Part shown: positions 50,223-51,835 of the stretch, piece after piece
Position numbering within the stretch: the stretch's first letter is position 1
Layout of the letters: each line of letters opens with the position of its first letter
Sequence record: PQ765507
Origin: Escherichia phage 212
DNA: 64,000 nucleotides
Strand: one strand, 5' to 3'
Made by a program: the position numbers and the translations under genes
The notes under the pieces: generated by a model
Database searches by the model: none
The model's input: the letters and a program-made list of their open reading frames with translations, nothing else
What the model was told of the DNA's origin: nothing

Positions 50223-51188
50223 ATGATGTTAGTTATTGGTTCTCGTGCATTACATAACGCTGGTCTGATTGAAAGTCAGAAAATTGAAAACTCTGATTGG
50301 GACTTTATCGCTGACCAGGGTTCTTGGAACAGTTTTAAAACCCAGATGATGGGGCAGCACGTGCATGTGGATAACCCAGATGTTCAAGCTTTTAAATGTA
50401 TGCACAATGGTAAAGAAACCTATTTTGAAGCTTATATTGTCCGTGCCCTGACCAACGTACGAGAAATTACTGGTGAGCTTCAAGATGAAGATTTCACCTC
50501 AAGTTATCGTCTCTTGAAATACGCTGAAAATCATATTAAGAAAGACCGTCTTACAGGTTTCTATTGGGCGACGCCTGATATTTGTCTGGCGATTAAATTG
50601 TCTCATCGTTACCTGAAGAACAACCCATTCTTCCTGAAGACCATGAGTCATATTAATTATCTTCGCAATAAGGGTGTTGTTCTTAATGATGAACTGCAGA
50701 AAATCATGCTGCAGCGTCAGGCAGAAACACTGTCATACAGTCACCCTAAACTAGACGTGGGCAAGAAAACTTTCTTTAATGATACAATCTACACCCTTGA
50801 CCATGACTCCATCCACGAGGCTGTGGCGCTTGCTGATAAGCCTGCATATAAGTTTTATATGAAGGATGATTCAGAAGTCATGACCTCGCGTGAAAAATTT
50901 GAAGCACTCCCTGAGATTATTAAACTGGCAGGGGTTTATGAAGAAGCATGTGTGCTCGCTCTGGAGCGTTCGCAGGTTCCTAATGAGTTCAATATCTCTC
51001 CATCCGTGAGCTTCCATATTGCGCTGGAAAAAGTCTGTACCTCCATTACTTCTGGATGGTTCCGCACCTTCGCATATGAAAATTACGGTAAAATTATAAG
51101 TATGTATAATGCTTTAGGTCATGACGATTATATTAAACGTTTTAAGGCTAACCAGCATTTAATTAAACCATTCAAAAAGGATGAATGA
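50223..51188 (+). CDS. hypothetical protein (321 aa), possible nucleotidyltransferase-fold N-terminus
   Basis: ATG with GAGG RBS; N-terminal GS...DWD pattern (VIGSRALH...ENSDWDFIAD). Confidence 0.55.
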   Translation: MMLVIGSRALHNAGLIESQKIENSDWDFIADQGSWNSFKTQMMGQHVHVDNPDVQAFKCMHNGKETYFEAYIVRALTNVREITGELQDEDFTSSYRLLKYAENHIKKDRLTGFYWATPDICLAIKLSHRYLKNNPFFLKTMSHINYLRNKGVVLNDELQKIMLQRQAETLSYSHPKLDVGKKTFFNDTIYTLDHDSIHEAVALADKPAYKFYMKDDSEVMTSREKFEALPEIIKLAGVYEEACVLALERSQVPNEFNISPSVSFHIALEKVCTSITSGWFRTFAYENYGKIISMYNALGHDDYIKRFKANQHLIKPFKKDE

Positions 51189-51835
51189 TGGGAAGACCAT
51201 TAGAAGATTTGACTGGTAAAATTATTAATGGAATCAAATTTGTTTCGGTAGCATATAAAACCGCTGGAGTTTCTACTAAATGGAATTGTATTTGTCATTG
51301 TGGTAAAGAGTTTGTCACAGCCGCCGCCCGTATAAAATCAGGTAAAACCAAATCGTGCGGCTGTCAGAAATATCATTATTCATTTATTTCTGACAAACCT
51401 ACGTATTCATCGTATGCTGCCATGATTGAAAGGTGTACAAATCCTAACCATCATCGTTGGAAGCAGTATGGTGGCGCTGGTGTACAAATATGTGATAGGT
51501 GGCTACCAAAGGGAAAAACTGGTTATTTGAATTTTGTTGAAGATATGGGTATTCGTCCAGCAGGTACAAGCATTAATCGGATAAATTCATGTAAGCTATA
51601 CAGTAAAGAAACTTGCGAATGGGCTTCATTATCAATACAGTCATTTGACCAGGATACCCGAAAAGATTCACCTGGTCCAATTACAGGTGTCAAGTTTAGA
51701 AAAGACAGAGGTAAATGGATATCATATATTACTGTTAATCATAAAGAAATCCAACTTTACTATGGTGATTCTCGCGACGAAGCAATAGAAAGACGACGCG
51801 CCGCTGAATTGAAATATTATAATAGACAAAAATAA
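51185..51835 (+). CDS. Mob-like putative homing endonuclease / DNA-binding protein (Cys cluster + AP2-like domain)
   Basis: CICHCGKEF...SCGC cluster, RCTNPNHHRWKQYGGAGVQICDRW motif, C-terminal AP2-like GVKFRKDRGKWISYITVNHKEIQLYYGDSRDEAIERRRAAELKY. Confidence 0.5.
   Translation: MMGRPLEDLTGKIINGIKFVSVAYKTAGVSTKWNCICHCGKEFVTAAARIKSGKTKSCGCQKYHYSFISDKPTYSSYAAMIERCTNPNHHRWKQYGGAGVQICDRWLPKGKTGYLNFVEDMGIRPAGTSINRINSCKLYSKETCEWASLSIQSFDQDTRKDSPGPITGVKFRKDRGKWISYITVNHKEIQLYYGDSRDEAIERRRAAELKYYNRQK

Follow-up and report, generated by a model that had tools for sequence, protein, structure and literature searches.

A putative homing endonuclease gene of the IPA-HNH/HNH-AP2 class at the 3' end of a DUF7275 gene in a T-even phage

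Introduction

Two described classes of putative homing endonuclease genes (HEGs) come closest to the open reading frame (ORF) analyzed here, which occupies positions 51185-51835 (+ strand) of a 64,000-nucleotide stretch of Escherichia phage 212 (sequence record PQ765507; the whole stretch is referred to as the window). Its 216-aa product combines CapR, IPA-HNH-like and AP2 domains and is a putative homing endonuclease of the free-standing kind. In the HNH-AP2 putative HEGs of T4-related phages and protists (Magnani 2004; RB49 ORF040c, RB43, RB16, JSE; PMC1524935, PMC2993671), a domain in the same nuclease slot is followed by AP2, and the class has been reported as mobile elements in T4-related genomes (PMC1524935, PMC2993671). 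A Pfam HNH match with a genuine His is found in these proteins and in two relatives of the window protein (P0091 and P0110), but not in the window protein itself. HHsearch was the basis for defining the IPA-HNH class, whose prototype is ICP1 gp59 and whose members combine a divergent HNH-like domain with a following AP2 domain (Barth, Dunham & Seed 2023, PMC10448857). Its ICP1 members (gp59, gp115/116 and gp209) share the homologous middle domain and the AP2 domain with the window protein, behave like HEGs next to conserved genes, and have no Pfam HNH_3 match. Compared with gp59, the window protein has an additional N-terminal CapR zinc finger, Arg instead of Lys at the HNH histidine position, and the DUF7275 gene instead of the DNA polymerase gene as presumed target. 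T4 lacks any IPA-HNH member (PMC10448857), whereas the window protein is found in a T-even phage; JS98 and JS10 had previously been listed as HEG-free (PMC1524935, PMC2993671).

The DNA-binding domain CapR was first recognized in the repressor CapR of PLE satellites and in the T5orf172 homing endonucleases. The CapR repressor of PLE and the CasPR anti-CRISPR silencers (bioRxiv 10.64898/2026.02.23.707548) have the same CxCxC...CxC finger as the window protein, a single AP2 domain, and DNA-binding modules derived from HEGs. They contain no nuclease-slot domain, act as repressors, and reside in Bacillota prophage acr loci or PLE satellites. The window protein, in contrast, keeps a complete ~90-aa IPA domain, shows the population behaviour of an HEG and is encoded at an e-proximal locus of a lytic T-even phage; it does not qualify as a CasPR.

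A first-pass annotation of the window had likened the position of the gene to that of T4 mobD. The ORF does share with mobD the character of a free-standing, putatively mobile endonuclease gene of a T-even phage, but the analogy failed on closer inspection: BLASTP gave an E-value of 4.1, and location and neighbours differ. T4 mobD lies at 56.4-57.2 kb, ~9 kb from e (66.5 kb), with mobD.1 and nrdC.11 as neighbours and no DUF7275 gene, and MobD has a weak Pfam HNH match and an architecture unlike that of the window protein. T4 nrdC.11 was tried as a DUF7275 homolog and rejected; it is an RlaP-type nucleotidyltransferase without BLAST similarity.

We propose, with a probability of about 0.6, that the ORF is a free-standing homing-endonuclease-type gene of the IPA-HNH/HNH-AP2 class, with the 3' end of DUF7275 genes as its homing site. 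Database records already contain the ORF (VR7 gp135 and its VR26 homolog, labelled "hypothetical" or "restriction endonuclease"), and it is a further member of classes described before. Our analysis goes modestly beyond the literature in three respects, namely the combination of CapR, IPA and AP2 domains in a T-even type that had been listed as free of HEGs, the invariant association with DUF7275, and the family-wide replacement of His by Arg together with a PacI-like set of Tyr and an acid/amide pair.

Results

Insertion of the ORF and mosaic boundaries

Phage 212 is a Gaprivervirus, a JS98/VR7/SP18-like T-even phage of the Straboviridae. The ORF is a real gene and not a chance reading frame, as it has 113 homologs at E-values of at most 1e-3, with VR7 gp135 at 99% identity; a search for paralogs inside the window found none. 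Its upstream neighbour is the DUF7277-DUF7275 gene (50223-51188, + strand, 321 aa; Pfam E-values 7e-74 for DUF7275 and 2e-27 for DUF7277), a conserved neighbour and the presumed target. The genes e.2, nudE and lysozyme gene e are found on its 3' side.

Among 241 related phage records recovered by megablast of the region, only VR7 and VR26 carry the ORF. In the comparison of flanking synteny with ORF-less phages, which the first-pass annotation had recommended, VR25 has a clean empty site that reads ...TTTTTCAAAATAAGTGTGTACATCC.... The insert measures 654 bp, because a CAAAAA repeat is present at the insertion junction (51173-51178, + strand) and again at 51827-51832. Insertion alters the C-terminus of the upstream DUF7275 protein, from ...KPFSK to ...KPFKKDE (each followed by the stop).

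The ORF and its surroundings differ in their closest relatives. The ORF is 99.1% identical to its VR7 counterpart, versus 75-78% for the next three downstream genes, and the flanks are SP18/VR25-like (94-95% identity to SP18). Three-way informative sites delimit a VR7-type tract that begins at ~51005-51038, extends to the stop codon and gives way abruptly in the intergenic spacer. The 180 bp directly upstream of the ORF (51005-51184, + strand) represent a diverged allele of the DUF7275 3' end, which is 98% identical to VR7/VR26, at most 80% identical to 198 other phage records, and heavily diverged from ORF-less alleles in the alignment. Since it is VR7/VR26-like and far from the ORF-less records, this allele is strictly linked to the ORF and may be a co-conversion tract or a target variant immune to cleavage. 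Judging from the polarity of the linked tract, the protein would recognize or cut the DUF7275 gene somewhere in its final ~150-180 bp, and the diverged allele would protect carriers.

An independent replicate is provided by the Dhakavirus vB_EcoM_005, which is ~97% identical to the ORF-less phage Bp7 on both sides of the insert and carries, at the same insertion point, an allele with 70% nucleotide and 68% amino acid identity to the window ORF. The DUF7275 gene of vB_EcoM_005 is also shorter than that of Bp7 (287 versus 319 aa) by an in-frame deletion of ~96-103 bp, located at ~2703 of the analyzed region (L006) and ~300 bp upstream of the insertion point, which could be a target-site deletion or a repair scar.

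The DUF7275 gene of the window alternates between VR7-like and SP18-like blocks, and ~200 bp around a small ORF (50018-50209) at 50029-50229 are 100% identical to VR7 and VR26, with neighbouring sequence at ~93%; both point to further recent exchanges. A variable hotspot is found between the DUF7275 gene and the ORF134-like gene (51836-51894 in the window). Unrelated small ORFs of 225-279 nt replace the endonuclease-like gene there in SP18 (L003 2527-2751) and Bp7 (L020 1911-2189), and one accompanies it in vB_EcoM_005; megablast match spans suggest such small ORFs in JS10 and WG01 as well.

Association of homologs with the DUF7275 gene

Every close or moderate homolog examined begins 0-5 nt from the stop codon of a DUF7277-DUF7275 gene. 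This is the case for vB_EcoM_005 (68% amino acid identity), for the metagenomic homolog P0003 (62%) and phage nepoznato, which are Phapecoctavirus or Phapecoctavirus-like, and for P0012 (58%) and Aeromonas phage CC2, which are Ceceduovirus-like and Ceceduovirus, respectively. It is also the case for P0018 (43%), encoded on a T4-like contig in the rIIA-rIIB neighbourhood rather than near e. Distant homologs (at most 46% identity) and family members adjoin other conserved genes, including a terminase fragment, DNA ligase, dCMP deaminase and DNA polymerase (the last in ICP1, APSE-1 and MR7).

The ORF is intact in the window, VR7, VR26, vB_EcoM_005, CC2 and the metagenomic copies, and between intact copies dN/dS is 0.10-0.20, at saturated dS. 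The gene of nepoznato is interrupted at codon 28 by a premature stop.

Taken together, rarity, clean insertion, a linked flank tract, lineage-specific target genes and occasional decay make up the classic picture of a homing endonuclease gene, and this genomic behaviour is the strongest evidence for the homing endonuclease reading. The first-pass annotation had suggested an active or degenerate mobile endonuclease. The mobile part of this suggestion is supported by sporadic presence, clean insertion, mosaic boundary, target association and one decayed copy; the endonuclease part has to cope with the absence of the canonical catalytic His.

Some further features of the homolog neighbourhoods were recorded. 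On the metagenomic contig with P0026 (L014 2501-3813), a 43%-identical homolog directly precedes a 147-aa fragment with a weak Terminase_6N match, and the terminase gene may be split by insertion of the homolog. In Phapecoctavirus-like contigs (L009/L010 4065-4601), a separate HNH_3 gene is located two genes 3' of the DUF7275-linked homolog, forming a small endonuclease-like cluster. Product names in the RefSeq record of vB_EcoM_005 (NC_055783.1 72818-79365) seem to be in error, such as 'prohead assembly scaffold protein' for the DUF7277/DUF7275 gene, and 'tail sheath monomer' or 'major capsid protein' for small ORFs of the e region. The EAWsc9 record names the DUF7275 gene 'nucleotidyltransferase' and the counterpart of the gene 3' of the ORF (51895-52581; phrog_1843, no Pfam match) 'phytanoyl-CoA dioxygenase', both of them unconfirmed labels.

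Domain anatomy

The motif strings quoted in the first-pass annotation are all present verbatim in the translation of 51185-51835 (CICHCGKEF...SCGC at aa 35-60, RCTNPNHHRWKQYGGAGVQICDRW at aa 83-106, GVKFRKDRGKW...AAELKY at aa 168-211). Module borders were drawn from an alignment of 38 homologs and from AlphaFold (AF2) models, which were confident both for the full protein (pLDDT 89.4) and for the middle domain alone (pLDDT 93.6, pTM 0.84).

The N-terminal module (51200-51364, + strand, aa 6-60) is a CapR-type zinc-finger DNA-binding domain with Cys35, Cys37, Cys39, Cys58 and Cys60. Its cysteines form the CxCxC...CxC pattern and are invariant or nearly so in the alignment. The module is 49% identical to a region of P0092 that matches Pfam CapR (PF21817), and the window protein's own CapR match falls below threshold. 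The cysteine cluster belongs to this DNA-binding domain and is not a nuclease feature. The C-terminal module (51677-51823, + strand, aa 165-213) combines a three-stranded sheet and a helix with the AP2 profile (PF00847), which bears out the AP2 domain called from the sequence.

The middle domain (51386-51658, + strand, aa 68-158, ~90 aa) corresponds to the domain named IPA-HNH. Its family motif is RCxNP..Y..YGGxG..C.RW..F..DMG.RP..(I/L)(N/D)R(I/V)(N/D)..Y..C.W..Q..(D/N); in the window protein it opens with "RCTNPNHH...YGGAG..CDRW" and ends in a predicted strand-loop-strand-helix.

Profile searches gave a divided answer. Pfam, NCBIfam and PADLOC scans of the whole protein yielded no meaningful matches, and in PDB searches by sequence and profile AP2 was the sole match. 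PHROGs assigned the protein to phrog_374 (4e-59), labelled "HNH endonuclease", which we took as a claim to test. The first-pass annotation had named the finding of a DNA-binding domain without a nuclease domain as evidence against itself. The searches in Pfam, NCBIfam and PDB, which detect DNA-binding domains alone, come near to this outcome; only the PHROGs label and the published HHsearch inference call the middle domain HNH.

A large family of middle domains

When the middle domain alone was used as query, 70,536 cluster representatives (of clusters at 50% identity) were found at E-values of at most 1e-3, and 16,042 at E-values of at most 1e-10. Matches were found in 900 phage records, including Staphylococcus Kayviruses, Pseudomonas PAK_P-like phages, mycobacteriophages and APSE-1.

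Membership in the IPA-HNH class is supported by homology to ICP1 gp59 (hhalign probability 97.8%, E-value 8.3e-13, 153 columns spanning the middle domain and AP2), by the C-terminal AP2 domain and by the genomic signatures of an HEG. We found no later paper that uses the term IPA-HNH. In relatives with the same architecture (P0091, P0100, P0108, P0110 and P0112), a genuine Pfam HNH_3 domain is located between CapR and AP2, and the middle domain thus fills the "nuclease slot". The middle-domain profile alone gave only chance matches to lipase chaperone in the PDB, and Foldseek found no significant match in the PDB, with HNH enzymes below threshold.

Candidate active site

The end of the middle domain (51569-51652, + strand, aa 129-156) is predicted to fold as a beta-beta-alpha finger, with strands at 129-132 and 144-147 and a helix at 149-155 in the AF2 model; it contains N131, R132, Y139, T143, E145, Q152 and D155. 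A check for catalytic His-Asn-His residues, recommended by the first-pass annotation, had a negative outcome, since the three positions are occupied by Arg132, Thr143 and Asp155.

We counted residues in 362 domain copies from 240 proteins. The central position (Thr143 in the window protein) is Asn in 284 of the 362 copies, and the helix position (Asp155) is Asn in 215. In the predicted inter-strand loop, the residue aligned with Tyr139 is Tyr in 335 copies and Phe in 26. Positions 131 and 155 nearly always hold one acid and one amide (D..N 174, N..D 73 and E..N 22 copies, versus D..D 1 and N..N 3). This swap was not counted as independent covariation, because it largely splits two clades, DRYNRN versus NRYTED. 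Metal ligands would be expected at an Asp before the His position and at an Asn or His on the helix; the chemistry of the pair N131/D155 fits, at sequence level alone.

A precedent for such a site is PacI (PDB 3M7K/3LDY; His-Me finger group 20), a His-Me enzyme without the His, which uses a loop tyrosine instead and holds its metal with one Asp and one Asn. Asp and Asn as metal ligands are common to PacI and Hpy99I. PacI can be named as the best structural match of the middle domain, the likeness being that of the loop Tyr and the acid/amide pair at the level of sequence and model. PacI, a homodimeric restriction enzyme that carries two Cys4 Zn sites, has no detectable sequence relationship to the window protein.

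The candidate residues tend to be lost together. Loss of Tyr139 co-occurs with loss of D/E/N131 (Fisher p 4e-12), Q152 (2e-19) and N/D/E155 (3e-17), in copies that are not phylogenetically independent, and is not associated with loss of W106, W146, F117, C84 or N/T143 (p>0.2). The changes Y139 to F and R132 to L are confined to multi-copy proteins, in which another copy is complete (exceptions P0134, P0176, P0177 and P0245), and at least one complete site is kept in 223 of the 240 proteins. This correlated loss suggests an active site with degenerate accessory copies. We would argue from these patterns that the site is functional rather than decayed, despite the missing His.

Expression signals

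The start region (51177-51190, + strand) contains an AAGGA Shine-Dalgarno sequence (51177-51181), tandem ATGs at 51185 and 51188, and the TGA stop of the upstream gene (51186-51188). The second ATG would give 215 aa and is the likelier start, because all homologs open with MGR... The homologs abut the DUF7275 stop in the same start/stop arrangement. A search for a promoter of its own, a late promoter or a terminator for the ORF found nothing above chance on the + strand; there is no sigma-70-like promoter on that strand directly 5' of the ORF and no TATAAATA late promoter nearby. The start/stop overlap and the Shine-Dalgarno sequence imply coupled or read-through expression, and presumably the ORF is expressed by read-through with translational coupling.

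A perfect hairpin with a 10-bp stem (GTGGGACCAT, loop GACACA, ATGGTCCCAC; 51850-51875, + strand; -21.9 kcal/mol, z -3.7) is located downstream of the ORF. It belongs to the recipient backbone, because it directly follows the DUF7275 stop in ORF-less phages (VR25). It lacks a T-tract, no terminator was called there, and a role in RNA stability or processing is conceivable. In the whole window, the late-promoter motif TATAAATA occurs 19 times versus 4.5 expected. It lies on the - strand before ~37.6 kb and on the + strand thereafter, which marks a switch in the direction of late transcription.

Discussion

The homing endonuclease reading builds on anatomy, homology, insertion polymorphism, mosaic boundaries, gene association and purifying selection, all of which are observed. 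From these we infer DNA cleavage, the location of the target and the catalytic roles of single residues. The mechanism would be as follows. Read-through and translational coupling would allow expression of the ORF from its upstream neighbour. The protein would read a long asymmetric site with three modules (CapR zinc finger, middle domain and AP2), and would nick or cut the 3' part of the DUF7275 gene in a co-infecting phage without the ORF. Recombinational repair from the ORF-carrying genome would then copy in the ORF and the adjacent ~180 bp, and the diverged sequence of these ~180 bp would shield carriers from self-cleavage. Cleavage itself would be the task of the middle domain, a predicted beta-beta-alpha finger with Arg132 in place of the HNH histidine. 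Its loop residue Y139 and its acid/amide pair N131/D155 may provide the base or nucleophile and the metal ligands, in the manner of PacI. As a broader and tentative proposal, to which we would give less than even odds, the IPA-HNH domain may define a very large nuclease family in which His is replaced by an invariant Arg and cutting depends on a PacI-like loop Tyr, with this T-even member active and specific for the DUF7275 3' end and with degenerate tandem copies recycled as DNA-binding modules.

Several observations weigh against a homing endonuclease. Neither the protein nor 38 relatives match an HNH profile in Pfam or NCBIfam, and the middle domain has no sequence match in Pfam, NCBIfam or the PDB. 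Direct alignment (hhalign) of the middle-domain profile with an HNH_3 profile built from five sequences of same-architecture relatives was negative (probability 0.1), and the collinearity with HNH_3 that is seen by eye is therefore a lead and not a test. The position of the general-base His of HNH nucleases, at the end of strand 1, is Arg in 352 of the 362 copies and never His; in ICP1 gp59 it is Lys. For any member of the family, DNA cleavage by the middle domain is a proposal from sequence and model, and according to the authors who defined the class, the homing of IPA-HNH genes is experimentally unverified (PMC10448857). The lack of phylogenetic independence applies to all of the residue statistics, and the gaps at positions 152 and 155 may partly come from trimming of alignment envelopes. 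The mosaic boundaries could stem from ordinary recombination. Finally, the middle domain often occurs in two or three tandem copies beside CapR and helix-turn-helix (HTH) modules, as is typical of DNA-binding modules. As a sign of a pure DNA-binding module, this last point is weakened, because extra copies lose the candidate site, usually while another copy keeps it.

These points could be accommodated by an HEG-derived, sequence-specific DNA binder with a dead nuclease, acting as a transcriptional roadblock or regulator like CapR and the CasPRs (for example, on the DUF7275/e.2 operon or on genes of a competitor), with its gene passed on through ordinary homologous recombination. Both CapR and AP2 bind DNA, and their combination defines the CasPR silencers, which bind inside coding sequences; CapR and the CapR-AP2 CasPRs are proven pure DNA binders and repressors, a further point against a nuclease. 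The missing catalytic His, the lack of a match to curated nuclease profiles and the tandem repeats with HTH modules would all be expected of such a protein, a His-Me fold has been domesticated as a DNA binder before (SMAD MH1), and purifying selection fits a function beneficial to the host. However, presence in ~1% of relatives, clean presence/absence, a 99%-to-77% boundary and a linked tract are classic marks of an HEG, one copy is decaying, and the insertion point beside DUF7275 is the same in four lineages despite 30-57% protein divergence. The all-or-none conservation of D/N131, Y139, Q152 and N/D155, with at least one intact copy in most proteins, is also hard to explain for a mere binder, and CasPRIB1 is described with only helical linkers between CapR and AP2, the CasPRs being at home in Bacillota prophage acr loci. 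We regard a dead-nuclease binder as the main rival, clearly less likely than a homing endonuclease gene.

Two other explanations fare worse. The invariant adjacency and start/stop overlap in four phage lineages, even in the rIIA-rIIB context, might reflect co-function, with the ORF as accessory partner of the DUF7277-DUF7275 protein in a two-gene module. Such a module is improbable, since ~99% of the DUF7275 genes in T-even relatives have no such partner, distant homologs pair with unrelated genes (ligase, terminase, polymerase), the identity pattern of the ORF is decoupled from that of DUF7275, and neither PADLOC nor any other system search gave a match. A degenerate, non-functional relic of an HNH-AP2 endonuclease gene would account for the absent His and has a visibly decaying counterpart in nepoznato, but the ORF is intact in the window and in the other copies listed above, dN/dS is 0.1-0.2, and the AF2 models are confident (pLDDT 89-94). 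Arg132 is moreover conserved family-wide across ~70,000 clusters and is no recent lesion, which makes a relic a very remote prospect.

If the protein is active as a homing endonuclease, phage 212 and its relatives would offer a tractable E. coli phage model for asking whether and how a histidine-less IPA-HNH domain works as a nuclease, a question left open by the 2023 paper that named the class. The parts are in hand, with VR7 and VR26 carrying the ORF, VR25 and SP18 lacking it, and a defined empty site with a linked "immune" tract. Activity would also add a class of mobile elements to JS98-type T-even phages and would account for a local boundary of recombination close to gene e. An inactive protein would join the cases in which parts of HEGs have been domesticated as DNA binders, here CapR, AP2 and a dead His-Me finger.

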